Below are positions 23,630 through 54,900 of a stretch of 64,000 nt of DNA, piece after piece. Numbering within the stretch: the stretch's first letter is position 1; every line of letters starts with the position of its first letter. This DNA is from Amphiscolops sp. MND2022. Its lineage: Eukaryota. Made by a program: the position numbers and the translations under genes. The stretch is from the NCBI GenBank assembly GCA_964187785.1, contig OZ076409.1, forward strand, positions 42,286,001 through 42,350,000, given 5' to 3'. Below the pieces are notes generated by a model. That model ran no database searches. It was not told where the DNA came from and saw nothing but the letters and a program-made list of their open reading frames with translations.

Positions 23630-23739
23630 ATGATTCTTGGACGACCTCTAGGCACAAAAACCGCAAGCAAAAAAAATCAACGATATCAGTGAATAGTTTC
23701 GATGCACACTGTAATTTATTACGTTTGCTTACATCTACT

Positions 23740-25993
23740 TGTCACGACCCGCTCCCGGTCGGGATTATAGCTGCTGCAGTGGGATACCTGGTTTCGAAAT
23801 TGGCCGGGGACAAGGCCGAGGTAAACTCTATTAAACTAATTTTAAACTGATCTAAATTCTACTTACAGTACAGCGAAATCGATTGCAGATAATTTTCCAA
23901 ATGCAAAACCTAGCGTAAACGTTACGGAACACTTTTCAGAAATGATTTTTAGCTAAAACTTCCGGTCAATTATTCCCCGCGCGTGATAAGATTTTTCACT
24001 TCCGGTATGATCTTCTGATTTTCTGCCATACTAATCTAAACACTAAAATGAACATTTATAATTGGGATCATTCTTTCCACTGGTCCACACTAAAATGAAA
24101 ACATTAAAATAAAATTCAATTCCGAGATCCCAACGGAATTCATACAATCTAAAATGAAAAGGAACAGACAAATAATAGAGCGGAATTGTTTTCCAGAGAT
24201 GAAGTGGTTGTCAATATTCACTTAAAGCACAGCCAAGTGATTTAGGCAAATATTTACAACGCTATGGCAACGCCAATCTACTGAGCTAATATTAGGAATT
24301 TTGCTTCTACGGACCAATAACGTCACTCTATTGATAGAACTATTCTTAGCTAAGCTGAATAAAAGCAATTTTGGTTGCCCCTAGCAACACCAATTGAAAT
24401 AAGAGAGAGGGAATGAATTCACCTACGCACTCCGCTTTCTCTCCGCTTGATCTGATAGCTGAGCTATGAGCAACCTTAATACGTACGGGACAGCTACGGA
24501 GCGGATTGTAAAATTGTATTCCGCCGTTCAGCTATAACCAATCTTAATACGTACGGAACAACTCGTAAAATGATAGCGGTGAAGTATTAGTTTAAACCGA
24601 AATCAAATAAGGATTTTTCTGAATCGACGCACTTAATGAATTTTTGAAAACAAGTCCACATGTAAAAGGTTGTACTGTAAGAAAGGACTAAAATTATGTT
24701 CGAAGAGTAACGGTGCTATTGCAATAGTTTCTCAATTCACGCGTGCCTTACGTTACATTAAGAGTTTATGTATTCAGTGATTAGTTGTTTATCATTAAAA
24801 TGTTTCACAGAACGTAACGTAAGGTCAACGTCAAAACCCAAACCAAATGCTATTGATGCAGAATGCCTGCCCTGCCTATTCATATGCGATGCCCAATCGA
24901 GTGCAGAATAATTATTGCCTGCAAATACATTTCCTTTCCTATCTATTTGTACTTTGCAATTCGTATGTTACGTTATGGCCACGTATAGGTCAAAGTTAGA
25001 ATTTCTGTTGGTGCAGTTGTTTAGTTTACAAAATTAACCGTATAATCATCATTATGTTTTCTCTTAGCGTCGCTTGTTCCTCAATAATATTCAAATATCC
25101 GTAGTCCGAAATTCCTTTTGCCTCGTTTCAATTTCGTTAATTTTTGCGAGTCATTCTTTTACTTCGAATCTCAATCTCCCAAATTGAAAGTTGACTAATT
25201 GTTCATGCCGGCGTACTTACGCTGATGAATATGCAAGCTAGACGTTTATTTTACCGCGATTTTGAGACTTAAACAGGAAATGGGATTGCCTGAACAAAAA
25301 TGATTTCAACAAATTTACGGAACACTGACGCAACTAGGAATTTTGATGCCTGGTTTTTACGACGCGGGACTGAAATGATATGAATCATTAGCGCTTTTTG
25401 TTGAACAAACCCGATTTTTGTGATACCTAGGAATTTTTAGGTGAGGAACAAATGATGCTGGGAAAGTATAAATATGTAGTACATACATGTAAAGTTAGTT
25501 AGTTGTGTTTTGCAAGTTGTAATAAACTTAAACTGTTTTCGTTGTTTCAACGTTGAACAAAATCATCTTCGAAGAATTCATCTATTGCCGAAGAATCATT
25601 TTTTAACATTAAAAATGACCACTAGAAGCCAGAAGAGGAAAGCTGTAGCTGAATTAGTGTCTGGAGATTTTGAAGCTTCTTTAGCTGAAAATAACTCTGC
25701 TGAAAACCTGATACCCAGTTCTAGTAAAAATCCTAGACTTGAGCTTGAAAACCTGGAGGAAATAAAAACAACTCTGAGAAAAGAAATAATGACTGATCTA
25801 ACAAAGATATTAGCCGAAAACCAAAAGGAAATGCTTAAATTAATAGCACCAGCGAACAAGAAACGCTCAGTTAGTTCGAACATACAAGATTCTGATTCTG
25901 ACCAAGAAAACATCTCCGTAACGAGAACGTCCACTCCAGTCAAGACACAAACTGCGACTAGTTCTAAAACAACACCGGTCAATAGTCGTAACA
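23740..25993 (+). repeat. Element A 5' LTR (2254 bp)
   Basis: Direct repeat of 37733-39989. TATAAAT at 25467-25473 and AATAAA at 25521-25526. Confidence 0.97.
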
Positions 25994-27024
25994 TGGTGAC
26001 AGGAGTCCTCAATGATTCCACTAACCAACCCACCAAAAGACCGAAAACGCAACGTATACTCAACGAACAACAAAAAGACCGTCCTTCCACATCAAAGATC
26101 CTGTTCGCCCCACAACCACAGACATTCCCATCAACCGACCTACTTCCGATGCCGAAAGCACTCACTGCTTCGCTCCCAGTTTTCGATGGTAAGTCCGAAA
26201 AGTTTGAACTTTTTGAGGACCTATTCCGAAACAATATCAAAATGTATCCTCACCTAACCGAGATACAAAAGATCAACTACTTCCATTCACTCCTACGAGG
26301 AAACGCACTACAAGCGTTTTGTAATCTCGATGACACCAAAAAAGACAATCTAGAAGAAGTCATAACGGCATTTAAACGCCGCTTTGGTGATTTCCAATCA
26401 TCCGCTAAAGCGAGATGTGAGTGGGACGCCCTGCATTTTGACCCCACTAAACAGAAACTTCATGAGTTCCTTGACACCCTGCAAAAAACTGCGAAGGAAG
26501 CATTCGGCTCAGAAGCACAAAAATTCATTGATAAAGCAATCTACGCCAAAATGCCAGATCACGTCAAAAAGATCCTCAACAGAGCATATTTGGAAGATAA
26601 ACCCTACAATGACATAGTTTTACATCTTGAGAGGGAAATGAGATTAAACGGACTAGGTGCGCCCGATGAAACAACCCTAGTCCCACTCAACACAGTGGAC
26701 GCTGTAGTGACGGACCATCAAAAAGATCAACAACAACGAGGCCATTGCTTTCACTGTGGCAAATATGGCCACTACAAGGCACAGTGTCGCAAACTTCAAC
26801 GAGAACGTTATAATACAGCCAAAACAAACACAAAAGACCTAGCCCAAAACGAAGTACCCAAACCCAAGTGTGATACATGTGGCAAGATGCACAAAACTGA
26901 GAATTGTTGGAACGGAGCCAACGCAGCAAATGACCCCAGAAAGAAAAAACGAGAATTCACCATCCCAACCAACAAAATCAGTGAACAACCTGTACCCACC
27001 ACGTCCTCTCAGCCAAAAAACTAA
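25615..27024 (+). CDS. gag: Gag, starting within the 5' LTR
   Basis: First ATG at 25615 (the ORF track starts at an upstream TTG). Capsid-like LPVFDGKSEKFELFEDLF; zinc knuckles CFHCGKYGHYKAQC and CDTCGKMHKTENC. Confidence 0.93.
   Translation: MTTRSQKRKAVAELVSGDFEASLAENNSAENLIPSSSKNPRLELENLEEIKTTLRKEIMTDLTKILAENQKEMLKLIAPANKKRSVSSNIQDSDSDQENISVTRTSTPVKTQTATSSKTTPVNSRNMVTGVLNDSTNQPTKRPKTQRILNEQQKDRPSTSKILFAPQPQTFPSTDLLPMPKALTASLPVFDGKSEKFELFEDLFRNNIKMYPHLTEIQKINYFHSLLRGNALQAFCNLDDTKKDNLEEVITAFKRRFGDFQSSAKARCEWDALHFDPTKQKLHEFLDTLQKTAKEAFGSEAQKFIDKAIYAKMPDHVKKILNRAYLEDKPYNDIVLHLEREMRLNGLGAPDETTLVPLNTVDAVVTDHQKDQQQRGHCFHCGKYGHYKAQCRKLQRERYNTAKTNTKDLAQNEVPKPKCDTCGKMHKTENCWNGANAANDPRKKKREFTIPTNKISEQPVPTTSSQPKN
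25994..26006 (+). promoter_or_regulatory. Primer-binding site TGGTGACAGGAGT (probably tRNA-Leu)
   Basis: TGG directly after the LTR-terminal CA. One mismatch from the tRNA-Leu-type PBS TGGTGTCAGGAGT. Same 13-mer at 62076 (element C); TGGTGACAGG at 58079-58070 on the minus strand (element B). Confidence 0.8.
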
Positions 27025-27092
27025 AATCGCCGCGCCTACGATTTGGGGAAAAAGTAGACGCGAGGGCGTACACGATAGAGGACCCCCCAAAC
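27015..27092 (+). promoter_or_regulatory. -1 ribosomal frameshift signal (A_AAA_AAC plus candidate pseudoknot)
   Basis: AAAAAAC at 27015-27021, just before the gag TAA. The pol frame is -1 and open from here to ATG 27168. Stem CGCGCCTAC/GTAGACGCG; loop TTTGGGG can pair with downstream CCCCAAA. Confidence 0.8.
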
Positions 27093-30000
27093 AGGTATGA
27101 AGAAGATTTTTTAACTGAATGTAATGAAGAACCAACTCAAGACTGGCAACGCCGCTGGAACGTAGGCATGATACTCAGGCATAACGCCAGACATCCAGAA
27201 GATCCAACACCACTACCCCAGTGGATAACAGAATCGCCCGATAACTACGCGACACTCAAAAGACCGTTACCGGAATCAAAAACAGACCGAATTTATATAT
27301 ATGACAGAGACTACAGATGTGACCCTTGGGACGAACCAACCATCTATGATACAAATAAACTATCCTTCAAAATACAAGTCTCAAACCCTCAAGCTCAAAC
27401 CACGACGACCACAAACCTACCGTCACCGCCGTCACCAATCCTAAAAAGAACAACACCGTCCCCAACAGCACCCGTCACCGTCACGTCCACACCGATCGAT
27501 GCCGAAAACATCATATGCATTGAAGACAAAACAATATGGTCACGACAAGCAAGAGAACAGCGAGAAAACACCGCTTCGCTCTCGTCATCACCACAAACCG
27601 CGCCAGCCACAGCAATAGCCGCTGAAGACGAAGAAATAACGGAATGTCACCCAACACTACCAGAAGATCTAGATGTCATCAAAGAATTCATCCAGCACGA
27701 CAAGGAAGACGACTACATCCCGTTTATGTCTGCAATTGCCCTCAAGAAGAAAAAGAGAATGCTCTTCTTACCAATCGAATTCAACACTGTCAAAATCGAA
27801 GCCTTAGTCGACTCAGGTGCGTACATTAATGCTATTAGCGAAAGGGATGCTGAAAAACTCCACCAAAATGCGAGTCAATGCATTATTAACAAAGCACCTC
27901 CACCCCCTTTCAAAGTGCAATACGCCAATGCCGAACTAGAACAACCACTTGCCACGTACACTCTACGCTTCAAAATAGGAGATTACACTTTTGAAGAAAC
28001 ATTCATTATCATGAATCAAACGTCATTCCCCATAATTGGATTAGCGTTTCTACGAAAGCATGCCGCAATCCTTGACACGGCACAGGGAACCATCAACTTT
28101 CCCAAGATCCAAATCACGATGGCGCTCACAGACGAAAGACAAAAGTGCAATCCAAAACCCATCACGATAAAGACCGAAGCCAAACACACAATTCCAGCAC
28201 ACTCTACCCGAATCATATACGCAACAATCCCTGTGAGTACCGAACACTCAATAACGGGCACAATACAACCCCTACCACAATTCGATGAATGCGCGAAAGT
28301 AATAGTAGCCCCAGCGATTACAACAGCTAGAGATAAAAAGCTCCCAATTAAAATCGCCAACACCACGGATTTTCCATACACAATAGCCAACGACACCAAA
28401 ATGGCCGAACTGCAAATCCTGAAACCCGAAGAAACGAAGATGATCCGCCCAGTTGACATTGCTGCCCTGAATCTCCTCAATGACCATGACGATGTGGTCA
28501 CGTACATCAACGCACTAATGCAAGTAGAACGGCCAGAAGACAACGAAGAAAAATTCTGGTTCCCGACCCCAGATCACCCAGGCAACGAACAAGAACATTC
28601 GCCCATACAAAAGCGAATCCTGAAAGAACTGCGAGACCTTGCCGAATTAGAAAAACTTGACCCAACCGAAAACGAAGACTCTCGCAACAAATTTCTATCA
28701 ATGTTCAAATGGACAGACTCACTAATTACGGGCAAAGACCGTGAAAAACTTGAGGACACCATTGTTGAATTCAATGACATCTTTGCTCGACACCGACTAG
28801 ATATCGGGATGAATACACAGTTCAAAGTCAGCCTAACACCACAGGACGACAAACCAGTCTACACACAGAGCTTACCCGTCCCGATCAACCTCAAAGAATA
28901 CCTAACAGTGGAACTGGCACTGATGCACAAATACGGCATCATCACGACACTCCCCTTCTCCAAGTACGCCAGTCCTATATTTGCACAACGGAAACCCAAC
29001 GGCAAACTGAGACTACTGGTGGATCTGCGCAAAATCAACGCACTCATAGCAGATGACTACATCAACAACAACCACCCTGTCAGCACCCTCTCAGATGCGG
29101 CACAACACCTAGCAGGGAAAAAACTATTCTGCAAACTTGACTGCTCCCAGGCGTACCACTGCCTTCAAATGGCAGACCAAAGGTCAGTAGAGTTACTTGC
29201 TTTTAATTTTGCTAGTAGGACGTTCGCCTACCGTCGCCTGGCACAAGGACTAAGCAGAGCTCTATCAGCCTTTTCGAGCTTCATGCGTGAGTATCTGGAC
29301 TCAGTCATTAAAGCCGATCAATGTGCACAATACGTAGATGACATTGGCATTGCCGCAAACACAACGGAACAGCTCATAAAAAACATCAGAGCAGTCTTCA
29401 AATGCATCCGGAAAGCAGGACTAAAACTAACCATCGAAAAATGCCATTTTGGAGTAACCCAAATCGAATTTCTTGGACGAACCATCACCCCCGACGGAGT
29501 AGCCCCGCAAGATCAAAAAGTCAAAAATTTCCTCTCCAAAGTACGCTTCCCCAAATCCAAAAAACAAGTTCAAAAATACATTGGCTTTGTTAACTATTAC
29601 CGCAACTACATACCGCGCTTATCAGAAAAACTCATCGGCATGTACGAACTTCTTAAAGCAGACTCCAAGATCAGAATTTCAGAAGAACTTGTCGATAACT
29701 TTAAGGAAATCAACGCCAGTTTAGCGGAAGCTTGTGGACTCGCACTAAGACAGCCTATAGCAGGAAAACAGTACGTTCTAATGACGGACGCAAGCTTTCG
29801 TGCGTCAGGCTACGCCCTCATGATTGAGGAGAACGATGAACGCAAAATACTCTCCAAACGGAAAACCTTCGCACCAGTAGCGTTCGGATCACGAGTTTTT
29901 TCACCTGCACAACTGAAAATGTCTATCTACTGCAAGGAATTCTTAGCAATCTACCATGCATTCCTCGAATACAGCCACATACTATGGGAAGCAACAATTC

Positions 30001-32312
30001 CAACCCTGGTCTTAACAGACAACCGCTCAGTAACGAGATTCTTCCAGACCAAAACGACACCCCCTGCACTCTGGAATGCCTGCGACTATGTATTACAGTT
30101 CAAGTTCCGAATTATGCACGTAGCAGGCTCCCAGAACACAGCAGCAGATTTTCTTTCAAGACTTGAACTTACACCGAAAGAAAAGGTCCAACTTAAACTA
30201 CGAGACGACATACTAACGTCCCCAATTGAGGTCAATCTACAATCATCAGATGTAGCTGACGAAGAACAACTTTTCTTCCTACCTGATGACGAAGATGAAT
30301 CTGAACAAGAAATCTTTGCCCGAAAAGCACTCAGCAAACAACGCGCCCTAGACGAACATGAAAGAGAACTATCAACAAAAGTAACCGAAGTCATCAAGAT
30401 ACCACTCAACTCCGCAGTCTACTCCTTCGGCGCAATCAAAGAAAATGCACGGATCAGAAACGAACAAGATGCAGACCCTCTCCTCAAAGCACTGAAGCAA
30501 CGGATCTCACATGAAGAATATGACAAACACCTCCTCAAAACTGAACCACGAGGACGAAACCTATTACGCCACGAAGAAAGAATCATAATGAAGGATGGAG
30601 TTCTGATGCGGAAATACTACGGAGAAGACGGATCAGTCACCCATAATCAAATCATAATTCCGAAACACCTAGTCCCAGAACTCTTGGCCACTCTACATGG
30701 GAAAACAAATAAACATCCAGGAATCGCAAAAATGATACAAGAATGCAGAGCGAAATACTACTTCCCGGGTCTTGCACGTAAAATCAGAGCTTGGGTAACC
30801 AGCTGTCAAGACTGCATTGCCAATAAAAGAATCGACACAAGACAAATACGCCCCAAAATGCTAAGCAACACTGAATTCACAATGGGACCAGAAGACTGCC
30901 TAGAAGTAGACATTCTTCCAAACCTACCTTCCTCAAATGGATACCAACACATCATCACGATGATGGACGTTTTTTCACGTTACCTTTTCGCTTACCCGAC
31001 ACAGGACATGACAGCCAAAACAGTCGCACGATGCATAATAGACGTCATGACACGACACTGCTACCTGCCGACCGTCATTCTAACAGATAAAGGATCACAA
31101 TTCAGATCAGAAGTAGTCAATCAAATAACACAAACATTGGATATACGGATAAGCCACGCATCGACGAAACACGCTCAAACAATTGGCATCCTAGAAAGGA
31201 CTCATGCCTCTTTGAAAACCTCCCTAAAGATATCAACGGGGGAACGACGCTCTATGTGGCATAAATATGTCCAGATCGCAGTCATGAACTACAATACGAG
31301 CTATCATGAAAGCCTAGGTTGCGAACCTACAACAGTATTTCACGGACGCATTCCGTACAACATCCTAGACATAAAACTCGGATTGAAACCTGAATGGAAA
31401 AAAGATAACAACGAAGAACTGACGGATCAACTACAGAAGCAAATATCCGAAATACACCATGCCGCCAAAGAAAATCTAATGCAGTCCTACTTAAAGTACA
31501 AACAGTACTATGACAAGAAAGCAACAGCAACACCGCTCAAAGTCAATGACTACTGTTACGTCCTCAATCCGAAGGCAGACAACCAGTCGATGAAATTCGC
31601 TTTTAAAGATTGCATTTGGACTGGACCCTACATAGTAGTCAAAGTACTCTCGAACAACAACTACATCGTACGCCGCACGGGAACTAGATATACCCAAACC
31701 CTCCATAGAATTCGCCTAAGGCTATATGCGCCCAATCAGCGAGTACCTGACGTAACAGTCAGAAGGGAAGATTATCTTCCAGACCCAGAGGTTAAAACAA
31801 CCCACAATGATTGGTACGCGCAAGCTTGGGAAACCGAATTCGGAGAAGTTCTGTTCGGAAACAATACCGAAAACGCCGCAGAAGAAGCCACAGTTACAGA
31901 AATTGCAGACACAACAGGACGCAACGAAACTACAACGGGAAATGATGTGGTTAAAACAACCACCAATGAAAACACAGTGAAAAATGACGTGGTTCAAACA
32001 ACCACACACGAAGCTACAACGGAAAGCGACGTGGCTCAAACAGCCACAAATGAAAATACTGTAGCAGATAAAACACCTTCCGACAATATAACGTCATTTG
32101 ATCTAGATGTCAGCGATAACCCATATATTTTGACCCCACCACCGATACACAGCCCTCCCAAAACACCCGAATTACCGCCTATAGTCGTTGGATACAATCC
32201 TAGAAAAGTGGGACGATACAATTTGAGACCTAATCCGAGACCCAACGTGGACCCTGACTTCAGAATGCTAAACTCAACTACAGCGGACGATTTACGTCAA
32301 ACTCAAAACTAA
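27021..32312 (+). CDS. pol: Pol polyprotein (protease, RT, RNase H, integrase); first ATG 27168, likely made as Gag-Pol
   Basis: ALVDSGA protease; YVDD RT; TDAS RNase H; H-H-CxxC zinc finger, D-D-E core (LEVDIL, TDKGSQF, ILERTH) and GPY integrase motifs; Thr-rich tail. 1714 aa without stops. Confidence 0.97.
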   Translation, partial: LKSPRLRFGEKVDARAYTIEDPPNRYEEDFLTECNEEPTQDWQRRWNVGMILRHNARHPEDPTPLPQWITESPDNYATLKRPLPESKTDRIYIYDRDYRCDPWDEPTIYDTNKLSFKIQVSNPQAQTTTTTNLPSPPSPILKRTTPSPTAPVTVTSTPIDAENIICIEDKTIWSRQAREQRENTASLSSSPQTAPATAIAAEDEEITECHPTLPEDLDVIKEFIQHDKEDDYIPFMSAIALKKKKRMLFLPIEFNTVKIEALVDSGAYINAISERDAEKLHQNASQCIINKAPPPPFKVQYANAELEQPLATYTLRFKIGDYTFEETFIIMNQTSFPIIGLAFLRKHAAILDTAQGTINFPKIQITMALTDERQKCNPKPITIKTEAKHTIPAHSTRIIYATIPVSTEHSITGTIQPLPQFDECAKVIVAPAITTARDKKLPIKIANTTDFPYTIANDTKMAELQILKPEETKMIRPVDIAALNLLNDHDDVVTYINALMQVERPEDNEEKFWFPTPDHPGNEQEHSPIQKRILKELRDLAELEKLDPTENEDSRNKFLSMFKWTDSLITGKDREKLEDTIVEFNDIFARHRLDIGMNTQFKVSLTPQDDKPVYTQSLPVPINLKEYLTVELALMHKYGIITTLPFSKYASPIFAQRKPNGKLRLLVDLRKINALIADDYINNNHPVSTLSDAAQHLAGKKLFCKLDCSQAYHCLQMADQRSVELLAFNFASRTFAYRRLAQGLSRALSAFSSFMREYLDSVIKADQCAQYVDDIGIAANTTEQLIKNIRAVFKCIRKAGLKLTIEKCHFGVTQIEFLGRTITPDGVAPQDQKVKNFLSKVRFPKSKKQVQKYIGFVNYYRNYIPRLSEKLIGMYELLKADSKIRISEELVDNFKEINASLAEACGLALRQPIAGKQYVLMTDASFRASGYALMIEENDERKILSKRKTFAPVAFGSRVFSPAQLKMSIYCKEFLAIYHAFLEYSHILWEATIPTLVLTDNRSVTRFFQTKTTPPALWNACDYVLQFKFRIMHVAGSQNTAADFLSRLELTPKEKVQLKLRDDILTSPIEVNLQSSDVADEEQLFFLPDDEDESEQEIFARKALSKQRALDEHERELSTKVTEVIKIPLNSAVYSFGAIKENARIRNEQDADPLLKALKQRISHEEYDKHLLKTEPRGRNLLRHEERIIMKDGVLMRKYYGEDGSVTHNQIIIPKHLVPELLATLHGKTNKHPGIAKMIQECRAKYYFPGLARKIRAWVTSCQDCIANKRIDTRQIRPKMLSNTEFTMGPEDCLEVDILPNLPSSNGYQHIITMMDVFSRYLFAYPTQDMTAKTVARCIIDVMTRHCYLPTVILTDKGSQFRSEVVNQITQTLDIRISHASTKHAQTIGILERTHASLKTSLKISTGERRSMWHKYVQIAVMNYNTSYHESLGCEPTTVFHGRIPYNILDIKLGLKPEWKKDNNEELTDQLQKQISEIHHAAKENLMQSYLKYKQYYDKKATATPLKVNDYCYVLNPKADNQSMKFAFKDCIWTGPYIVVKVLSNNNYIVRRTGTRYTQTLHRIRLRLYAPNQRVPDVTVRREDYLPDPEVKTTHNDWYAQAWETEFGEVLFGNNTENAAEEATVTEIADTTGRNETTTGNDVVKTTTNENTVKNDVVQTTTHEATTESDVAQTATNENTVADKTPSDNITSFDLDVSDNPYILTPPPIHSPPKTPELPPIVVGYNPRKVGRYNLRPNPRPNVDPDFRMLNSTTADDLRQTQN

Positions 32313-32458
32313 ATGAAAACAATGAGCAGGCTAAACCGAACCGGAGTAGCTACGTAAAATTATCATCTAAACTAAAAAGAACAGCAACAAAGCCAAAATT
32401 ATAGTTCCTTCAGAATCATCAAAACATAATAAAAGTCTACAAATCATCACAACACAAA

Positions 32459-35400
32459 TCACTTGACATGATGATGTATGGAAGGATCAATGTCTTTCTT
32501 CGACTTCTTCTTCGGAGTCGTTTTACTACCACCAGCTTGCACGTTAGACTTCTTCGTCTTCCCGACCTGCTTCCCATCAGTACTCTTTTCACCAACTTTA
32601 TTTCCACTACTTTTCCCTTTTTCACTAACAGAACTGGAACTACTCTGCACAACGGAACTACTACGAGACCCCTGCTCTGCCCGAGATAAACGATTGACTC
32701 GATTACACTCCGTATAATGCTCATCACTGGATTGACGTCGCTTTGCCAAAAATTCTTTATACAGCTTGCAGAAAGATGCAATAAACGAGTCCACACCGGC
32801 ATCGCACAAATCTTTCCATACGTTAAAATCAGAGCCAATATAAAATAGCCCAGCTTCAGAAACAGCATCTCGCATTAGGCCCATGGATGACTCAGTAAAT
32901 AACGACTGCGGAGAATAACCGTCGCTCAAAACATACGATTGAACAACTCTGCAACACAGAAGAACACTTCCTTCAGCCTGTTTACAACTCGACAGATCAA
33001 GAGTAAACGGAGGACTAACACGGTTGGGCTCACCGACAAGCAGACAACACAACTTGAAGACACGAAGTACATGTCGTCGTGACTGGAACCCAAAATCATC
33101 CAGCAAGTAGCGGCGAATGTCCGTGATAGAACTGGCAGAGCGCTCCAATCGACTATGCTGCCTGCGTTTCTCGATCACGTACGCACTATACTCATCCACA
33201 GCAGCATTGCATTCTTCTCGAGATAAAGCGCCACACCTCACAAGACCATCACACAGCTCAGAAAACAAATCAAACGCACACTTATCGTCACCTTCTAACA
33301 TCAGTTCAGGGCAGAAACTGCACAGACCCTTCGAAACAATGGAACGAGTGCTGGCACTCTCCACTAACAGAGTGACGAGGCGATCGATAAATTCTCTGCA
33401 GCGACCACGAAACTTTGGCATCTCGCTTGCCTTCGACGACAAAAGAGACTTCCCATAATCACAGTGAGCCAAGAACTCATCCATAGGTGCAACAGGGAAA
33501 CTTGCCGCCTTTTCCACGTCCATATATGCATCCCAATCGTGAATAGCTGGAAGACTTGACAACTGGCGCGTCTTCATCAACAAACAGTATACGAAATTGC
33601 ATAATTCACCATAGCCATGGAATGCATAATCGCTGCGGCTCTGTCTCAACTTCGGCAAATGAATATGGAAAGTATCCAGCATCAATTGCAACAGCCCAAA
33701 ACGATACGGCACCAGTCCGTCCGAGATCACAGTTGAATCCATACCTCTCAACTAAACAACAACACAAAATAACTAAGTAGACGGAAAACAACAGATGACC
33801 AACAAGACGACCGTGAAGAACCCCCCGAAAAAAAAAAGAGAAAGAAAAAAAAAATCATGCAACAAACTCACACTGTCGGCCTGATCTTTCACATGAGGCA
33901 ATCCGGTACACCGAATGAACAGGCGAATTGAAGGCCACAGGTCCACCAAATCAGTCAGAACCTCACGAAGATCCTGGAAGGCAACGGAACCTTGACGAAT
34001 GGCCTTGCGCAACAACACCTTGCCATCCGTCCAGTCCTCGTACACAGCGCTCTTTAGCCGTAAAATGACATAGTCCACCAAACTTGTCACCTCTACCATC
34101 CCGAAAACATCCTGATGTGCCTGACGCACACACTGTAGGAACACCTCCTCGGAAAACTGTTGATGCATAACAAGTCGTTTCCCATCAGTACGATTGTCCT
34201 CTATCACTCGAAGAAGCACCGGACTAGCACCGCTGACACAAAAGGGAAGTCGCGCATTTTGCACACTATGGACGAACTGTGCCAAAGGAACCAACTCGGA
34301 TTTGGGCATAGGCTGGTCCAAAACTTCCTGACCAATGCAGATTTTCCGCAGAGCATTGTCCAACCAGCACACAACAAAGCATCGTTCCACATCCGCGTCT
34401 TTCTCATAGAACAATGCATATTCATTGCGCGTCCCGACTGCACTGAGAACCAAACGCAACACCCGAGGAGCAAGGCCACGACACAGCAAGGACTGAAACA
34501 ATATACAAATACCATGACTACAAAACCACACTACTACTGCCCCCCCCCCTCCCGAAAAAGAAAAGGAAAAAGGAAAAAAGGAGAAAAAAAAAGAACAAAA
34601 AAAAAGAAAAAAAAGGAAAAAGAGGGAAAACGACACAGACAAAGCTCATGAACCCAGAGACCACAAAAATATGTAATACCCCTACTTACCACCGTCTCAG
34701 CACGACTCCAATTCAGCTGATATTCGGGCGCCCTCTCACCCAAAGAAGCTCGGAAACACGCCCATAAACGTCGCAGCAACGTGAAATCGCCGCCACTCCG
34801 GAGCCACTCACAGACGGCCGAGATCATGGTCATAAATGGGACCTTTGAATCAACTTGGGCATGTTTGGGCACCAAATCTTCTGGAAAGGGAAACCCCTCT
34901 GCCAAGTCCACAAAAGGTTGAGCTTTGTATTCCGCAATCTGGGCGGCAGTCAGTTCCATAGGCTCCAACCATCTATTGTATACGGGCAACCCTGAATGGA
35001 CTCTGTAGCGCACGTCACGAAACCAGTGCCCATCAGACGCGAAGTGACGTTTAAACTCGCCAGATCCTTGTGCCTTCATCCGCACATCTCGATTGCACAC
35101 TCGACAAAAGAACGACGTAGGCTCCCCGCACTTAGAGCCACTGACAAAGTTGGGATATGCGGGATGCAAAGATAACATGCGTCTCTTCAAATGTTTGCGA
35201 TTCCCATAAGTTCGCACTCGCCGCTGGCAGCGATCTTCAATCTTCTTCGACAACTTCGTGAAACCTGCAAACGATAACACAACCATCTATAAATATGACA
35301 CACGATATTGCGACCCCAAAACCCCAACCACACTTAAACAACCCCCTATCAACTATGAGATACTAACGGACCTGTCTCGATACTTTGTACTGCCCGAGTC

Positions 35401-36367
35401 TCCACCTCAGAAATCAGATGACGACCAAATTGCGCCAAGTCAATCGGACTCAACGGAGTATTGCCGGGGAAAGCTAACACCTCCTCCTCCGCTTCTGGAT
35501 CACCTATAACAAACATCAAAACAATTAGGTGGACACACTATAGAATCCCGAACCACTCTGAGAAACCCAACCAGAAGACTAAAGTGAACAACTCTATACA
35601 AGCATTCTACAAAACAAAGAGAAGAGAAAAGAAAAGGATGGGGGAAAAAGAGAAACAACTAACTGCTCCATCCCTCTGCCATAAGCTCCTGTAAGCTAGG
35701 AGAATGACCACCTTGACGTTGCGGTGGCGGAGTCGAAAACTTCACAGCCCGCTCACGAGAACAACTTGGCTCCATGACATCGACAGTTGCAGTGCCCTCA
35801 TCATTTCTCCCTCCTCCACTTTCTTTTGGGGAGGCCGGAACGGCCTCGCCTCCACGAGGCTCACTAACAACAGCAGCATCCTGAAGCTGAGAACCAAATC
35901 CGGTGGCATCTCGCGAAATTCCAGTACTGACGTCGGGAGCCTCTAACAACGAAGAGGAACCAGGCTGGAAAGAAGCAGTATGTCCAGAACCAGCAAGAAC
36001 AGTCGTCAGCATAGCGTTGACAGAGGCAACCGGAAATGCCTCGGTAATGGAAGGGAGTCCCACGGGAACCAAAGAATGGCTAGCCTCCGTATGGGAGCTA
36101 AGCCCGGGCAGCGCAATGGGTTGAGTTACTGAAAATCAAGATCTGGTTCAGACGCGTCAGAGTTACGGGTAAGACTATAAAAGGCTGATCACCAAAAACA
36201 ATAGTCCTATTGCCCAGGAAGTCAGAAAGATTTTACCAACCCGAAGCAGAACGAGAAATATCGATGTCAGAAGGAACAACATCATCATCGGTGAAATTGA
36301 ATGTTGTCTCGTTTCCACTGACGAACCCTGCACCAGTACCAGCAGGAGGACCAGAATCACCATCCAT
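32459..36367 (-). CDS. Antisense spliced accessory gene, ~1070 aa, BED-like zinc-finger protein. Exons 36367-36241, 36128-35664, 35503-35372, 35264-34690, 34492-33872, 33751-32459
   Basis: Five GT-AG introns (36240-36129, 35663-35504, 35371-35265, 34689-34493, 33871-33752), each ending in a pyrimidine-rich tract and YAG. Phases 1,1,1,0,0 join into one 3213-nt reading frame. Motif FCRVC-x16-H-x5-H. The 3' introns have textbook donors; the start and 5' exons are less certain. Confidence 0.8.
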
Positions 36368-36429
36368 CCAGAATAACAACTCAAGAAATCTAAAACAAAA
36401 GGAAAAATCAAGAAAAACTATGCAAAGCG

Positions 36430-36957
36430 AACGTAAAAGACAAGAAAAGGAACAATAGCATCATTTCTACAGGAAAGAAAACCATCTATGTTCCAATTCC
36501 CATTTTTCCTTTTAAAAGCCTATTATGGCATTGACGGAACAAAACGTTTCCAAAAGTTGGATAAAAATCCACCAAGAAATGCTAAAGAAGAATTAAGAAA
36601 ATCATCAGGAGATCACGGAACATAGGCGTAATACACCAATGAAACTGTGTGACGTCATTACGCCATTAACCGAAAAGAGGACGGCTACTAGAATTAGAAG
36701 TTTTCATCAATTATTTCGACCAATCACAACGCAGTAAGAAAGAACTCGTTTCTTTCATTCCGAGACGCACCGAAACGAAAGCGGAAAAACCGACCAATAG
36801 AATTTCGTTAAAAATTACGAAGGAAAAGAATTTGAAACGTTCATTTGTCGTTCAATTTTCATAAAAGCTTGACCAGCATCTTCTGCCAAACTAATTCTCT
36901 GTGAACTAGTCAAAGAAGACATAAGCCAGAATCCTGCAAAATTTAATCCCTGCAATC
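36430..36957. promoter_or_regulatory. Candidate bidirectional internal promoter
   Basis: Lies between two divergent ORFs; TGACGTCA (CRE) at 36650-36657 and CCAAT boxes at 36636, 36720 and 36794. Confidence 0.5.
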
Positions 36958-37827
36958 ATGAACGGATACTCGTTGGTGATAGATATATCTTCCGACGAAG
37001 ATAATAACCGTTGCAGCACGCCGTTGAAGGCATTACCCCTCAACACGATCAGCACTCTTAGTGATTCGTCCACGGAAGCATTCCGTGGGAGTGAAGCTAG
37101 AACAGATTCAACATCCGAGTCTGACTGTTCTCCGAAAAAGCGCGGCCCTACCCCCAGCAAAAAGAAAAAGCTAGGGAGAGTAAGTTTTAATCTACCGCCA
37201 GCAGTAAACCCCGACTCAGATACCGACTTCTACGAAGAACCGGACACGCCACCGAGCCAGCCCCTAACAAGACCAACACCAGTCCTAAAAGAAAAAGCAA
37301 ACATTCCCCAATTAGGAAATGAAAGGGCTCCAAACACAGTCAAGCTGAATGACTTGAATGAGCCTTCGCTGGCAGATTTGGACGCACTACACGGCTTAGA
37401 TATAGAAGATCGGCAGTTTTTCGCAGCAGTTGGCCGTGGACGCACTCACTACGGCGCAAAAGAGAATGCCCCCCCTCCGACTAAAAGAGAGCAATGCATT
37501 TGTGCGTTAAGCGACCCTACTAAGCCGCCGGAAATATGCCCTATCGATACGATGCGAAGAGAACAGGAGCTTCGAGAAATGGAAGAAGAAGAAAGGTTCA
37601 TAACAAAAATGACTGCAGGAAGAGGACGTAGTCGCGGCACGCGGATTCTCAACGGCCGTCCCCCTGTCATCATCAGGAAAGAAATTCCCCATTGCCGAGC
37701 TATACCCTTGTCTCTTGCTTCAAGAGGGGCCCTGTCACGACCCGCTCCCGGTCGGGATTATAGCTGCTGCAGTGGGATACCTGGTTTCGAAATTGGCCGG
37801 GGACAAGGCCGAGGTAAACTCTATTAA
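36958..37827 (+). CDS. Sense accessory ORF3 (289 aa, mostly low-complexity), ending inside the 3' LTR
   Basis: ATG-initiated intact ORF. VIDISSDED (SIM-like), KKRGPTPSKKKK (NLS-like), repeated GRG. No signal peptide or transmembrane stretch, so not env-like. Confidence 0.7.
   Translation: MNGYSLVIDISSDEDNNRCSTPLKALPLNTISTLSDSSTEAFRGSEARTDSTSESDCSPKKRGPTPSKKKKLGRVSFNLPPAVNPDSDTDFYEEPDTPPSQPLTRPTPVLKEKANIPQLGNERAPNTVKLNDLNEPSLADLDALHGLDIEDRQFFAAVGRGRTHYGAKENAPPPTKREQCICALSDPTKPPEICPIDTMRREQELREMEEEERFITKMTAGRGRSRGTRILNGRPPVIIRKEIPHCRAIPLSLASRGALSRPAPGRDYSCCSGIPGFEIGRGQGRGKLY
37722..37732 (+). other. Polypurine tract of element A
   Basis: AAGAGGGG(CCC) immediately before the 3' LTR TG. Confidence 0.7.
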
Positions 37828-39989
37828 ACTAATTTTAAACTGATCTAAATTCTACTTACAGTACAGCGAAATCGATTGCAGATAATTTTCCAAATGCAAA
37901 ACCTAGCGTAAACGTTACGGAACACTTTTCAGAAATGATTTTTAGCTAAAACTTCCGGTCAATTATTCCCCGCGCGTGATAAGATTTTTCACTTCCGGTA
38001 TGATCTTCTGATTTTCTGCCATACTAATCTAAACACTAAAATGAACATTTATAATTGGGATCATTCTTTCCACTGGTCCACACTAAAATGAAAACATTAA
38101 AATAAAATTCAATTCCGAGATCCCAACGGAATTCATACAATCTAAAATGAAAAGGAACAGACAAATAATAGAGCGGAATTGTTTTCCAGAGATGAAGTGG
38201 TTGTCAATATTCACTTAAAGCACAGCCAAGTGATTTAGGCAAATATTTACAACGCTATGGCAACGCCAATCTACTGAGCTAATATTAGGAATTTTGCTTC
38301 TACGGACCAATAACGTCACTCTATTGATAGAACTATTCTTAGCTAAGCTGAATAAAAGCAATTTTGGTTGCCCCTAGCAACACCAATTGAAATAAGAGAG
38401 AGGGAATGAATTCACCTACGCACTCCGCTTTCTCTCCGCTTGATCTGATAGCTGAGCTATGAGCAACCTTAATACGTACGGGACAGCTACGGAGCGGATT
38501 GTAAAATTGTATTCCGCCGTTCAGCTATAACCAATCTTAATACGTACGGAACAACTCGTAAAATGATAGCGGTGAAGTATTAGTTTAAACCGAAATCAAA
38601 TAAGGATTTTTCTGAATCGACGCACTTAATGAATTTTTGAAAACAAGTCCACATCATGTAAAAGGTTGTACTGTAAGAAAGGACTAAAATTATGTTCGAA
38701 GAGTAACGGTGCTATTGCAATAGTTTCTCAATTCACGCGTGCCTTACGTTACATTAAGAGTTTATGTATTCAGTGATTAGTTGTTTATCATTAAAATGTT
38801 TCACAGAACGTAACGTAAGGTCAACGTCAAAACCCAAACCAAATGCTATTGATGCAGAATGCCTGCCCTGCCTATTCATATGCGATGCCCAATCGAGTGC
38901 AGAATAATTATTGCCTGCAAATACATTTCCTTTCCTATCTATTTGTACTTTGCAATTCGTATGTTACGTTATGGCCACGTATAGGTCAAAGTTAGAATTT
39001 CTGTTGGTGCAGTTGTTTAGTTTACAAAATTAACCGTATAATCATCATTATGTTTTCTCTTAGCGTCGCTTGTTCCTCAATAATATTCAAATATCCGTAG
39101 TCCGAAATTCCTTTTGCCTCGTTTCAATTTCGTTAATTTTTGCGAGTCATTCTTTTACTTCGAATCTCAATCTCCCAAATTGAAAGTTGACTAATTGTTC
39201 ATGCCGGCGTACTTACGCTGATGAATATGCAAGCTAGACTTTTATTTTACCGCGATTTTGAGACTTAAACAGGAAATGGGATTGCCTGAACAAAAATGAT
39301 TTCAACAAATTTACGGAACACTGACGCAACTAGGAATTTTGATGCCTGGTTTTTACGACGCGGGACTGAAATGATATGAATCATTAGCGCTTTTTGTTGA
39401 ACAAACCCGATTTTTGTGATACCTAGGAATTTTTAGGTGAGGAACAAATGATGCTGGGAAAGTATAAATATGTAGTACATACATGTAAAGTTAGTTAGTT
39501 GTGTTTTGCAAGTTGTAATAAACTTAAACTGTTTTCGTTGTTTCAACGTTGAACAAAATCATCTTCGAAGAATTCATCTATTGCCGAAGAATCATTTTTT
39601 AACATTAAAAATGACCACTAGAAGCCAGAAGAGGAAAGCTGTAGCTGAATTAGTGTCTGGAGATTTTGAAGCTTCTTTAGCTGAAAATAACTCTGCTGAA
39701 AACCTGATACCCAGTTCTAGTAAAAATCCTAGACTTGAGCTTGAAAACCTGGAGGAAATAAAAACAACTCTGAGAAAAGAAATAATGACTGATCTAACAA
39801 AGATATTAGCCGAAAACCAAAAGGAAATGCTTAAATTAATAGCACCAGCGAACAAGAAACGCTCAGTTAGTTCGAACATACAAGATTCTGATTCTGACCA
39901 AGAAAACATCTCCGTAACGAGAACGTCCACTCCAGTCAAGACACAAACTGCGACTAGTTCTAAAACAACACCGGTCAATAGTCGTAACA
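37733..39989 (+). repeat. Element A 3' LTR (2257 bp)
   Basis: Differences from the 5' LTR that I could see: a 3-bp CAT indel near 38655 and G/T at 25244/39240. Confidence 0.97.
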
Positions 39990-41197
39990 CTACTCAAGTA
40001 TTAAAAACTTTTAACGAACCATCATCCTTTTTCAATCATCAATGCTCTTGAAAAGCAACCTTTCCAAAGTTTGTGACGCAACTTTCGATAAAATTTCTAG
40101 CGCACAGCTGACTGAAATTTTTGGTGTTTGTGTTCTCTCGACCATCTTTTCGAAATCTTTCGATGAAGTCACGTTCGAAACGAAATTCGCTGAATATCTA
40201 ATTGTAACAACTGAATCAACTCACAAAACTTGAACCAAAAAAATATTCGACCCAACTTCTTCACATCCGAGTTCCAATGAAAGGAGCTCAAGATCGAATG
40301 AAAAGTGACGAAACTCTTCAAACGCTTGTCAATCATAAAAAGTTCGCGTCTCTTTGGCTGAACGTTTCAGGCTCAATTTCTGCAAGAAGCTTGATGATCA
40401 ACAGCTTTGATTTTCTATCAAATTGTTCCTCGGAGAAAACATCGGTATGACTCATCCTTGCCACAGTTGCAAAAGGTCCAACGGATTCTTTTTGAGTCTT
40501 TCTAGTAACAAAAGGTCAAGTCGTCTTGCTGATCCTAACCCTCTAACTAGGCAAAAGCTAAACTTTGAGAGTTGCCCTAAATGATGGAACCTTATGACTG
40601 TATCGAACTGACGGCCTGATTTTCAACTATTAGCGTTACTGTGGCCTTACTTTAGCTAGAAAAAAGGAACATGGTGTCACCAAGGGCAACTAAGTTGATC
40701 AGAAAATGAATATCACACTCGATGACGACGCGATAAATTTTGTTTGGGAAGAATCTAAGAAAAACCACACGGTGTAAGGAACGTGAACAACGATAGAAAA
40801 AGATGATGTCTTTCGGAGCAGTTTTTTGGTTCCTGTGATTGGATTATTGCTTTTCGCTACCAAAGCAACAAAGCAAGCAGTGAACATCGAATTGAACATT
40901 GAATTTTATTGGATTAATATACATGACATACATTAAGAGTATTCATAAATGTATACAAAATTCAATGTGCAACAAAGCAAGCAGTCAAAATAAAGTGAAT
41001 ACAAGGAAGGTAATTTTTAAGCAATCTGCCCCAAGTCAGAAAATGAATTAAATCCCGATTAAAGATAAGTCCTGATGATGAGCAACTAGATCGTTGTTCG
41101 AAACGTTTTCACATTTTTGTAATCTTTTGTATTAAACATGATGTTTGTTCAGTGAGTGTAACGTCACTTTCTAATATACGAGCTGCAGAAATTTGGT

Positions 41198-43861: not shown

Positions 43862-44061
43862 NNNNNNNNNNNNNNNNNNNNNNNNNNNNNNNNNNNNNNN
43901 NNNNNNNNNNNNNNNNNNNNNNNNNNNNNNNNNNNNNNNNNNNNNNNNNNNNNNNNNNNNNNNNNNNNNNNNNNNNNNNNNNNNNNNNNNNNNNNNNNNN
44001 NNNNNNNNNNNNNNNNNNNNNNNNNNNNNNNNNNNNNNNNNNNNNNNNNNNNNNNNNNNNN
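43862..44061. other. Assembly gap (200 N)
   Basis: Run of N. Confidence 1.
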
Positions 44062-51996: not shown

Positions 51997-54900
51997 CTAA
52001 TATCTGTATTCATCAGTGAAGTTTGGGGTAGGGTTAGGACGTAAATTATTTTTTCCTCCCCTAGGACTTTCATTTTCTACAACTATTTCATCATTTTCCT
52101 TGTCTAATATATCGGGCACGGTTGTATCATTCCCTCAGAGACTTGAAAAATCAGAATTTATCCCCTGTGAGAGGCTCTGGGAGGTCATTTCGTCATTTGC
52201 GGATTCGGTATTTTTTTGCAGTCTAGTTGACCTAAGGCCTGTGTCAGCCGTATTTTGAGCCGGCTGTTCAGTCTCTCCTGTACTAGTATCCTGCTGTAGT
52301 CGAGCGGACCGACGGTCCGCATTGTCGATTTCGTGCTCACGCTGCTCAGGAGCACCATCATCTGCATTTTTGTCCTGTCGCGTGGACCGGACCTCCAAAT
52401 CTGTAATTTTAGCGTCCTGTTGATCAGAATCAGCAAAATCTTCATCGTGCGTGTTTTTTAGTCGGAGTTTGTAGGAAAGTTCAAAATTTGTTTCCCACGG
52501 AATAATGTATCAATCGTCTTGTGGAATAATAATTTCGTCGTCCGCTTGCAAGTTTCCTTCCGGACCAATACCTTGTAGGGTAGTTTTTACCTTGCATTTT
52601 CGTAATTGAATTCGATGTAAATTCTGTGTTTTGTTAGAATTAAGTTTGCGAAGTATGTAGATTTCATTGGGAATGACTTTTTCGATGACGTAAAGTCCTA
52701 TCCACCGAAATTCTCGGAATGGAATTTTGAAGTTTTGATGATCAGCTAGCGGTTGTAAAATGAAACAGTAATCACCCTTTTCTAACGGGGCTGCTTTAGC
52801 CTTCCTGTCATAGTATTCCTTGTACTTCAAGTAGGATTGCATGATGATTTTTCTTCGTTTCGTCAATAAGTATTTGTGCACGTTGTTGAAAGTCTTTCGC
52901 AAAGTCGGCCGCGGGAAAAGTTTTCAAGTTGGGGTTTAATCCTAACCGTTGGTCTAGGATATTGTAGGGGATACTTTTCCGTGAAAAAGTATGGAAGGTT
53001 CACATCCCAGGCTTGAATGATAAGTCGTATTGTAATTGGGTACGGCCAATAGAGGGTATTTGTGCCATTGACGTCGGTTTTCACCTGATGCCATTTGCAT
53101 GAGTCCGTTCTAATTTATCTATTGTCTGAGCATGCTTCGTCGTTGCACACTTTATCTGAATACGCATGATTTTTGCAATTTCGTCAACTAGACGAGATGT
53201 AAATGATGTTCCTTTGTCAGTAGTCAACGTAGTTGGTAAGTATGTGTGGGTTCTCATGATATCAATAGGTACTTTTGCTCCACTAGTAGCCGAAGCGTCT
53301 GTTACAGGATAGGCAAAGTGGTATCTTGAAAGAACATCTAAGGTGGCAGGTTTTGCAAATTGTTGATTCGTAAAACATCTTCGGGTCCAAGGTCCCAATC
53401 AGGCAACCAGCGTAGTTCGGGCGTTATCGATGTAATTTAGATTTGTTTGCCTTTTATGCAGATTTCACACCCATGTACCCATTTTTTTGGCAATTTTTGA
53501 ATTTCTTGGATATTAACATTTTGGACGGATCTCATGAAGCATTTTGAAAATTCCCGAGTGTTTCTTCGCAGTCCCATGTAGTGATTGAAGTGATTCAGTC
53601 ACAAGATGTTTTGGAAGCAGCGCTTGGAGGTATTGGATGCTGCCGGTTTCTTCATAGTGGTCTCTGATGATGATATCATCTTGGACGGACAGACGGTCAA
53701 GTTGACTGCAGTAATGTCAGTGACAAGGGCCTTCTTGTAAGATGGTTTCTGAGTATTCTTCTTTCTGTAGATTAAGACGTTATTGTTGTAAAAAGATATC
53801 GTTTTGTTGTTCAATAACCATGGTGGTTCTTTTGGCAAGTTTCTGTAAAGTTGGAGTTTGAAAGTGAGTACTATTGTGTGTACTGAGTTTCTCCAACAAA
53901 ATATCAGGAAGTTGGTTTGTCGTGATTGACCTGGTGTCTTTTTTTGCGCTGCCAAATTTGTTCTTTTGTTCCTTCATCATCGACTTTGTAGAAGATCTGG
54001 TCCTCTTCAGTGACTCCAGCCGAGTGCACGTTGAGTTCAATGGGCGTCGTTGATATGTCTTCTCGTGTGCGGAGTATAAAATTTTCTTTAGGACAGAATT
54101 CTAGGCGAGACAGATAGTCTGATGCGGTGTTGTTTTTGCCAGGAATATGGACAATACTGAAATTTAACTGAATAACGTAGTCACACGCGTTCCACAGTGT
54201 TGGTGAAATAATTTTAGTTTGAAAAAGCGAGTGACCAACTTGTTGTCTGTTAAGATTATCACCGGTTTTGGAGTCCCCCAAAAGATAATCCTAAGTTCTT
54301 TAGAGGCAAAGAATATCGCTAAGAGTTTTTAGGCGTATATGGACATTTTCAGTTAAGCGGGACTAAATGACTTGGATCCATAAGCTACAGGTGCGAAGGT
54401 TTTTTGCGTTGAATTATATTTTTCCAGTGGATCGTCCTCGCTGAGAACTGCGTAACCTGTTGCCGAAAAACTAGCATTTGTCATCAAAACTATCTGTTTC
54501 TTGGGCAGGGGTTGTTTGAGTGCAAGTTTGCAAAATCGGTCAAGAGCTTTGTTGATCTCGATTAATTTCTCTAACAGATCCGGTATCACCATGACTTTGG
54601 TACCATTTTTCAAAAATTTGAAGAATGGTGTCAGCTTCTGAAAGCCTTGGGATGTAATTACGATAGTAATTCAGGAAGCCCAAATATCTTCGAAGAGCTT
54701 TTTGTTTACGGAAACTTGGTTTTCTCTTAGAAGTTTTGGACCCTGGGTCCTTGTGGCCGCACTCCTTCTGGAGTGGAGGTTCGCCCCAGGAAGTCAATTT
54801 CTTTGGCTTCGAAGTGGCATTTGTGCATCGTTAATTTGAGACCCGCGGTCCGGATGCACTCGAGGCTCGTAGGTTGTCAATGAGCTGTGTAGCATTCTCG

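Follow-up and report, generated by a model that had tools for sequence, protein, structure and literature searches.

The genome of Amphiscolops sp. MND2022 harbors, within a 64,000-nt stretch (assembly GCA_964187785.1, contig OZ076409.1, forward-strand positions 42,286,001 to 42,350,000; hereafter the window, whose own numbering is used throughout), a 16.25-kb Ty3/Gypsy retrotransposon that encloses the whole of a gene encoded on the opposite strand to gag and pol. Judged by the conservation of its exons and splice sites in related copies, this is very probably a real, selected and spliced antisense gene that belongs to the element. The best explanation of the evidence as a whole, namely a selected accessory gene of a Gypsy clade with the role proposed below, is in our view likely. 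The layout is known in plants and fungi, and our analysis suggests that its occurrence in an animal and the protein family itself are new.

A six-exon gene antisense to gag and pol

Reading leftwards on the minus strand from an ATG at 36367, the predicted exons 1 to 6 span positions 36367–36241, 36128–35664, 35503–35372, 35264–34690, 34492–33872 and 33751–32459. Joined, they amount to 3213 nt and translate into 1070 codons plus a stop, with zero internal stops. The initial annotation had assembled a frame of ~1070 amino acids (aa) with compatible phases from four minus-strand open reading frames (ORFs) and two short exons, and this frame was recovered in full; the four long ORFs lie at 32459–33751, 33773–34645, 34534–35286 and 35659–36135. 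In the junction numbers, the last base of one exon was taken to precede the ^ and the first base of the next exon to follow it, as the alternative reading, in which the first number denotes the first intron base, breaks the frame.

The five minus-strand introns lie at 36240–36129, 35663–35504, 35371–35265, 34689–34493 and 33871–33752 and measure 112, 160, 107, 197 and 120 nt, respectively, in agreement with the five GT-AG introns of 107–197 bp proposed before. Their donors (GTTGGT, GTTAGT, GTCCGT, GTAAGT and GTGAGT) and acceptors (TTTCAG, TTATAG, TTGCAG, TTTCAG and GTTTAG) match the ten hexamers of the initial annotation as written. The antisense gene and pol are arranged tail to tail, with the stop of the former 146 nt past that of the latter, and the gene occupies the region between the end of pol (32312) and the start of the 3′ long terminal repeat (LTR; 37733).

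The enclosing Ty3/Gypsy element

The plus-strand LTRs of the element (5′ LTR, 23740–25993; 3′ LTR, 37733–39989) are 99.82% identical over a 2257-bp alignment, have TG..CA ends and are flanked on each side by the 5-bp target-site duplication CTACT (23735–23739 on the left, 39990–39994 on the right). The gene was said to lie wholly between near-identical LTRs with a perfect target-site duplication, and so it does. On the plus strand, pol (26985–32312; 1775 codons) encodes protease, reverse transcriptase, RNase H and integrase in the order PR-RT-RNaseH-IN, with Pfam matches to Asp_protease (residues 258–364), RVT_1 (669–834), RT_RNaseH (928–1034), Integrase_H2C2 (1225–1281) and rve (1302–1394). 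The gag frame, likewise on the plus strand, is open from 25480 to 27024 (514 codons; 25615–27024 when counted from the first Met) and contains two CCHC knuckles and a DUF1759 match. By its LTR ends and target-site duplication, gag knuckles and pol domain order, the element is a member of Ty3/Gypsy.

The first Met of gag (25615) is situated ~380 nt inside the 5′ LTR (25615–25993). Consequently, the primer-binding site just past the LTR falls within the gag open frame.

Base composition bears on how long the antisense gene has been part of the element. Over the gene region the plus strand shows a GC skew of about –0.2 and an AT skew of about +0.25, the same as over pol, even though the coding strand is opposite. 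That these skews remain unchanged from pol through the gene despite the strand flip argues for a long residence in the element. More broadly, the plus strand is A- and C-rich throughout the internal region (window positions 26001–38000), regardless of coding strand, which has the appearance of a mutation bias linked to the element's replication.

Copies, families and conserved layout

The 1.07-Gb host genome yields seven matches above the cut-off for Wnt (PF00110) but zero for the chlorophyll a/b-binding protein (PF00504), as befits a metazoan. It was searched with both the DNA and the protein sequence of exon 6. Among 242 first-look candidates for the DNA query, 40 were scored, and all of these were 98–100% identical to the window. 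For the protein query, 99 matches were scored of 7671 candidates and fell into identity tiers of ~94, 89, 76, 74 and 58%; among these 99 are 66 full-length matches at ≥93% identity, of which 63 have an open exon 6. Searches with distant database relatives revealed deeper families in the same genome, ~36% identical to the window.

We fetched 20 loci across the identity tiers and four more from the 36% family. In each of the 20, pol (52–97% aa identity) converges on the antisense gene, and the arrangement of pol and gene is the same in 4/4 loci of the 36% family, whose identity to the window is 36% in exon 6, 41% in exon 5 and 55% in exon 4, and whose exons break at residues 433|434 and 640|641. 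The gene had been assigned to a Gypsy clade, with absence of the region from other full-length copies named as the observation that would speak against it; instead, the tail-to-tail layout extends down to 36% identity in exon 6, and the gene stands beside pol in all 24 loci examined. It is this conservation across diverged families, not the single copy, that makes the gene more than a product of chance. Probes of 27 nt spanning junctions 4 and 5 had 0 matches in the genome at ≤2 mismatches, i.e. no intron-less retrocopies were seen.

Two local rearrangements were noted among the copies. On contig C13, at 16.51–16.55 Mb, four exon-6 copies are spaced 13.96, 13.96 and 10.1 kb apart; because the distance from LTR to LTR within the element is similar (13.99 kb), the arrangement suggests a tandem array with shared LTRs. 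At locus L010 (5150–6660), tblastn places residues 218–325, 418–433 and 434–633 of the antisense protein twice, owing to a ~1.2-kb internal duplication that spans the end of exon 3 together with exons 4 and 5.

Splice sites and introns under comparison

An alignment of the gene from 13 loci and the window (MAFFT) served to follow each splice site. GT..AG is retained in 63/65 intron copies (13 loci × five introns), and both misses occur in L014, the 5′ part of which is missing. Where substitutions are found, they leave the splice signals intact, e.g. GTAAGT/GTGAGT, TTTAG/TTCAG and GTCCGT/GTACGT/GTTTGT. Relative to the 58% family, nucleotide identity amounts to 63–72% in exons 3–6 vs. 40–53%, i.e. 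near random, in introns 2–5. Differences in exon length are all multiples of three (exon 2, 465/456/384 nt; exon 3, 132/123 nt; exon 4, 575/569 nt; exon 5, 621/621 nt), whereas the introns are free of the triplet rule (intron 2, 160/110/167 nt; intron 4, 197/102–130 nt; intron 5, 120/99/128 nt). In database ORFs that run beyond the end of exon 4, the next codon specifies Val (GTN) in 20/20 and Val-Ser follows in 16/20 before unrelated tails begin, which fits read-through of a GTNAGY donor. By their GT-AG ends, the restriction of constraint to exons and the frame-keeping insertions and deletions (indels), the predicted introns classify as spliceosomal.

A presence/absence difference between families adds to this picture. 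The 58% family (L016, L018, L019 and L020) has an extra phase-1 intron of ~130–145 nt (GTAAGT..TTTCAG) after ‘LLQLMLDT’, and the 36% family (L050–L053) has one of 66 nt (GTAAGT..GTTTAG) at the same place, after ‘MLD(T/L)’. It splits the equivalent of exon 6 and gives a seventh exon, so that the gene counts six exons in the window's family and seven in these two deeper families. The intron is exactly absent in the window and in the 94, 89 and 76–77% families, where ‘DTFHIHL’ reads straight through in frame. With midpoint rooting, the window's lineage would have lost the intron precisely; in the exon-5 tree, the 36% and 58% families group together at a support of only 0.145. Whichever way the event is rooted, the predicted extra intron behaves as a spliceosomal intron.

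Intron 1 follows a pattern of its own. Its sequence is 91–99% conserved in 12/13 aligned loci and 95% conserved in the 58% family; it exceeds any exon, and no other part of the region is as well conserved as these 112 nt. The palindrome GACGCGTC that it contains (36151–36158) is also kept in the 36% family, in which the intron 1 core TCTGACGCGTC recurs as well (L054, ~2264–2274). For the conserved 5′ region, Rfam returned a single sub-threshold snoRNA match (E 0.74), located in exon 1. RNA folding of intron 1 gave z-scores of –0.7 and –1.0, i.e. no structure signal, and RNAalifold found 0 compensatory pairs in it.

Selection on the antisense gene

Selection was gauged from the ratio of nonsynonymous to synonymous divergence (dN/dS), calculated pairwise against the window by NG86. 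For L022, dN/dS is 0.10 in exon 3, 0.07 in exon 4, 0.04 in exon 5 and 0.11 in exon 6 (dS 0.11–0.22), and for L013 it is 0.05 in exon 4 and 0.06 in exon 5. The overall ranges are 0.04–0.11 for exons 4–6, 0.10–0.35 for exon 3 and 0.3–0.5 for exon 2, which is rich in Ser, Pro and Gly and under weak constraint. The core of pol (residues 850–1450) yields 0.01–0.07 in the same copies. Between the window and L022/L023, dS is 0.13–0.14 in pol and 0.16–0.22 in exons 4–6. In comparisons with the 58% family, dS has reached saturation, while exons 4 and 5 show a dN of 0.15.

As far as these comparisons of sequence go, constraint on the antisense gene comes close to that on pol, and the two have been diverging for similar lengths of time. 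The initial annotation had called the gene maintained and had suggested dN/dS across family copies as a check; the values far under 1 contradict neutral evolution and, along with the preserved splice sites and frame-preserving exon indels, agree with that description.

The encoded protein

Exon 4 carries a zinc finger of the form C-x2-C-x16-H-x5-H. Among 27 sequences, C53, C56 and H79 are ≥90% conserved, and the fourth ligand, H73, is replaced by Q in 3/27; sub-threshold matches connect the exon with the C2H2 fingers of KIN17, ZN292 and SF3a60. Exon 5 (207 codons) is the best-conserved part of the protein, at 78% aa identity with the 58% family. Its structural model, built from eight sequences, is too poor for use in a fold search (predicted local distance difference test score, pLDDT, 36.6), and within it a segment of the order b-b-b-a-b-b-a is modeled at low confidence. 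For exon 6 (430 codons plus stop), AlphaFold produced from 36 sequences a model of a different quality: residues 40–240 are predicted to be all helical, mostly at pLDDT >90 and with block means of 88–98, followed by a long helix (residues 319–363) and a disordered, basic Ser/Lys tail.

Searches for relatives of known identity were negative. Pfam returned no family for any exon at E ≤0.01, for exons 4 and 5 at E ≤10, or for 36 exon-6 homologues at E ≤1. Sequence and profile searches of the PDB gave a best E of 0.073 for exon 6 (a Zur protein) and none for exon 5, and Foldseek with the exon-6 model reached a best E of 0.37 in the PDB and 0.063 in the viral BFVD, amounting to no match. In a language-model look-up with exon 4, no score exceeded 0.89. 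Homologues as such are plentiful: exon 6 has 500 relatives at E ≤0.001 in a representative library, and exon 4 has 89 in a word-indexed search. All those looked up, including ten exon-6 clusters, are unnamed single-exon ORFs from ENA assemblies; a search of the library for longer relatives of exon 6 found none, and searches with pol and exon 4 returned only unnamed ENA proteins. As predicted from sequence and models, the protein is a new family that combines one C2H2-type finger and a confident helical domain with a long helix and a basic tail. Automated repeat masking and gene calling will fragment or conceal a gene of this kind. The database homologues found are without exception single-exon fragments.

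Origin of the gene

Descent from a hAT-type DNA transposase, either as a nested transposon or through takeover of its gene, concerns the origin of the antisense gene and would be compatible with its present status as an accessory gene; we consider such a descent unlikely. It would account for the domain order, since hAT transposases share the succession of finger, strand-rich segment (here in a low-confidence model) and helical domain. In the language-model look-up with exon 6, Dimer_Tnp_hAT/FAM200-GTF2IRD2-like clusters came first (score 0.90, 140 shared features), a lead rated weak, and the Hermes transposase (PDB 8edg, chain 8edg_A) ranked first of 48161 chains for the helical domain. This fold match attains only a Z of 5.3 with an rmsd of 11.6 over 179 aligned residues, however, and a Z below 8 possibly reflects just a common arrangement; the remaining fold matches are single long helices. 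Profile similarity to hAT transposases is missing: neither the exons nor the 36 homologues have a hAT, BED or DUF659 match in Pfam, and when the alignments of exon 6 and exon 5 were compared by hhalign with eight hAT transposases taken from this genome, the probabilities were 0.3% and 0.15%. Nor are there credible terminal inverted repeats, as the best pairs within 32000–37800 are of low complexity or 70–87% complementary, and none brackets the gene.

Less probable still is a transduced host gene that is carried passively and is of no use to the element. Transduction of host sequence by LTR elements is described as possible in part of a review of such elements, and the protein lacks any domain of retroelement type. 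Yet intron positions and the place beside pol are kept in every family examined, down to 36% identity, constraint is near that on pol, and the base skews of the gene are now those of the element. As no copy was found outside an element among the 25 loci examined, and the skews of the gene match those of pol, the initial description of the gene as ‘cargo’ is not borne out if the word is meant to imply capture from the host. An artefact of chance or annotation, i.e. antisense ORFs without a product, is extremely improbable, as it is already contradicted by dN/dS far under 1, exon-restricted constraint and frame-keeping indels, and would leave the 430-codon open frame opposite a non-coding plus strand and the hundreds of database homologues of exon 6 to coincidence.

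ORF3 and the shared spacer

A second accessory gene, ORF3 (36958–37827, plus strand; 289 codons), extends 95 nt into the 3′ LTR. It is present in all families at 30–93% aa identity and a dN/dS of 0.13–0.34 (located, for instance, at 596–1330 of L018 and on the minus strand at 917–1681 of L054), and is divergent from the antisense gene in every family, including the 36% family. ORF3 has no Pfam match. Its start displays a conserved motif, ‘Y.L(V/I)IDISS(D/S)EE..STP’, which we take to resemble a SUMO-interaction motif.

The antisense gene and ORF3 start head to head, 590 bp apart. The spacer between these two divergent genes contains the palindrome TGACGTCA (36650–36657), presumably a consensus cAMP response element (CRE) and a candidate promoter element. 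In 14/14 loci, TGACGTCA lies 220–302 nt upstream of the ATG position used, although in the surrounding sequence identity to the 58% family drops to 34–59%. Five CGTTATGnTGAC(G/C)TCA-like modules are present in the 36% family, and two of them are exact copies of TGACGTCA. In L054, these modules are found at 1770–2010, just upstream of the antisense ATG. Closer to the gene, a conserved TTTTAGA (36389–36395, minus strand) precedes the ATG by 28 nt. This motif, which reads TTTCAGA in the 36% family, occurs 14–32 nt upstream of the ATG in 12/14 loci, and the two loci without it had only guessed ATG positions. We assume that this heptamer fits both the initiator YYANWYY and a 3′ splice site, making it a putative initiator-like start site or the acceptor of an intron in the 5′ untranslated region. 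Independent transcription of the antisense gene, as the initial annotation envisaged, would follow from its strand and the selection on it, and would fit the conserved upstream TGACGTCA and the initiator-like motif. That the spacer acts as a bidirectional promoter is a proposition for which we see the case for and against as evenly balanced.

In L024, an antisense gene of the 94% tier is combined with an ORF3 that is only 47% identical to that of the window. Such a mismatch suggests that different families have recombined in the stretch that precedes the 3′ LTR.

Observations that weigh against the interpretation

Several findings count against the reading of a selected accessory gene with its own promoter and function. 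Pairwise dN/dS among genomic copies blends two signals, the selection that acts while a lineage is active and the neutral decay of each copy once inserted. Older copies are in part broken: in L009, L011, L012, L014, L017 and L025, one or more of exons 4–6 contain one to eight stops or a frameshift, and exon 6 of L013 is interrupted by a single stop. Transfer of the splice columns through the alignment yields an uninterrupted coding sequence (CDS) in just 3/14 cases (window, L022 and L023), although for the 58% family the failure is explained by the extra intron and a shifted ATG. As to expression, TGACGTCA occurs twice in the 64-kb window vs. 1.1 occurrences expected, so that the argument for it comes from conserved position and not from rarity, and the 960 nt past the stop on the minus strand contain no AATAAA or ATTAAA, the only poly(A)-type hexamer downstream being an AATATA at +332. 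As to function, the antisense protein matches nothing of known function in Pfam, PDB or fold searches, and the proposed role draws on the single finger, the basic tail and analogy.

Relation to known antisense genes

Antisense genes termed aORF-3R lie between pol and the 3′ LTR of plant Gypsy elements of the Tat/Retand lineage, namely Grande (gene23), RIRE2, Retand and PvRetro13, according to the portions of PMC7264820 and PMC11963269 that deal with them; a title cited in these papers credits Grande gene23 with its own promoter. Passages of PMC8365987 and PMC7264820 describe a fungal counterpart, the antisense gene brtn of Boty-like Gypsy elements in Botrytis and Sclerotinia. The mention of extra antisense ORFs in plant Tat-lineage elements (Grande and RIRE2) by the initial annotation was therefore well founded and can be extended to Retand and to Boty brtn, as far as these passages go.

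Going by the same portions of text, the plant aORF-3R resemble the gene described here in position and orientation, in the long region from pol to the 3′ LTR, in their presence in most copies and in being conserved like the element's own proteins (here, presence in 24/24 loci and a dN/dS of 0.04–0.11 vs. 0.01–0.07 for pol); a nuclear or DNA-binding regulatory role is suspected for them, as it is proposed here. Unlike the plant genes, the present one resides in an animal, forms a head-to-head pair with another accessory gene on the sense strand, and spreads its 1070 codons over six to seven exons, whereas the word ‘intron’ is absent from the main text of PMC7264820 and PMC11963269. It also differs from the antisense proteins of Retand in having no TRP28 (Transposase_28, PF04195) or other Pfam domain. 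Boty brtn, going by the passages cited above, likewise occupies the antisense strand of a Gypsy element downstream of pol and ahead of the 3′ LTR, but its hosts are fungi rather than an animal. The original description of Boty brtn is reportedly that of Zhao et al. (2011, Virology 417:248).

Among retroviruses, HBZ of HTLV-1 offers a parallel. HBZ is a minus-strand gene expressed from the integrated copy only; its product, of which one isoform is spliced, is a small nuclear regulatory bZIP protein starting in the 3′ LTR. Both are thus minus-strand protein-coding genes of a reverse-transcribing element, expressible only from the integrated copy. In contrast to HBZ, the gene described here would encode a large zinc-finger protein, has five to six introns and is probably driven from an internal spacer, and the two show no homology. 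Antisense genes of complex retroviruses such as HBZ are mentioned in a passage of PMC11963269.

The initial annotation knew of no animal element with this architecture, and the literature searched likewise contained no animal case of such an antisense gene; subscription journals and Repbase/Dfam were outside its scope, so that an earlier description is possible. Those parts of a giant-transposon review and of an annelid LTR survey that touch on the subject mention no animal example. LTR retrotransposons of animals are usually viewed as gag-pol elements, sometimes with env. Against this background, a clade with thousands of first-look matches in one genome appears to retain two extra genes under selection across deep divergence and may offer, in an animal, a parallel to the unexplained antisense genes that Gypsy elements carry in plants and fungi.

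A possible mode of action

Introns oriented with an antisense gene go unrecognised in the sense genomic RNA and hence survive reverse transcription. In the element studied here, the antisense orientation of the gene means that its introns are present in the genomic RNA only as reverse complements, remain unspliced and are copied into every new insertion. The same orientation would confine expression to the integrated DNA copy, from an internal promoter reading against gag-pol. The element may accordingly represent a natural case of introns carried through reverse transcription by virtue of their orientation, with one exact presence/absence difference between families.

After integration, then, an internal promoter in the spacer would direct transcription of the antisense gene to the left and perhaps of ORF3 to the right. 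Once spliced, the antisense mRNA would give rise to a nuclear, nucleic-acid-binding protein, with the finger, the helical domain, a long helix that possibly mediates pairing, and the basic tail. Such a protein might serve the element by acting on its transcription or the fate of its RNA, or by countering host silencing, in analogy to the accessory proteins of complex retroviruses. A regulatory or nucleic-acid-binding role on behalf of the element is about as plausible as its opposite.

More tentatively, and with lower confidence than for either the promoter or the role, the sequence data could be taken to mean that an invertebrate Gypsy clade has, independently of retroviruses, become ‘complex’, deploying a spliced antisense finger protein of a new family and the small sense protein ORF3 in opposite directions from one internal CRE-type promoter and needing both to multiply. 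If this were true, the two-gene module might control LTR transcription or blunt host silencing, and the exact absence of the extra intron in the window's lineage would reflect recombination with cDNA of the spliced antisense mRNA.

Other contents of the window

The remainder of the window holds further retroelement sequence. A decayed, older Gypsy element on the minus strand (52003–57041), whose pol is 31–57% identical, contains no detectable homologue of the antisense gene. Positions 43862–44061 are a run of 200 N. A BEL/Pao fragment with Peptidase_A17, rve and DUF5641 matches occupies positions 1–2554, and a third element on the plus strand (61616–63671), comprising gag and the start of pol, is truncated by the end of the window.

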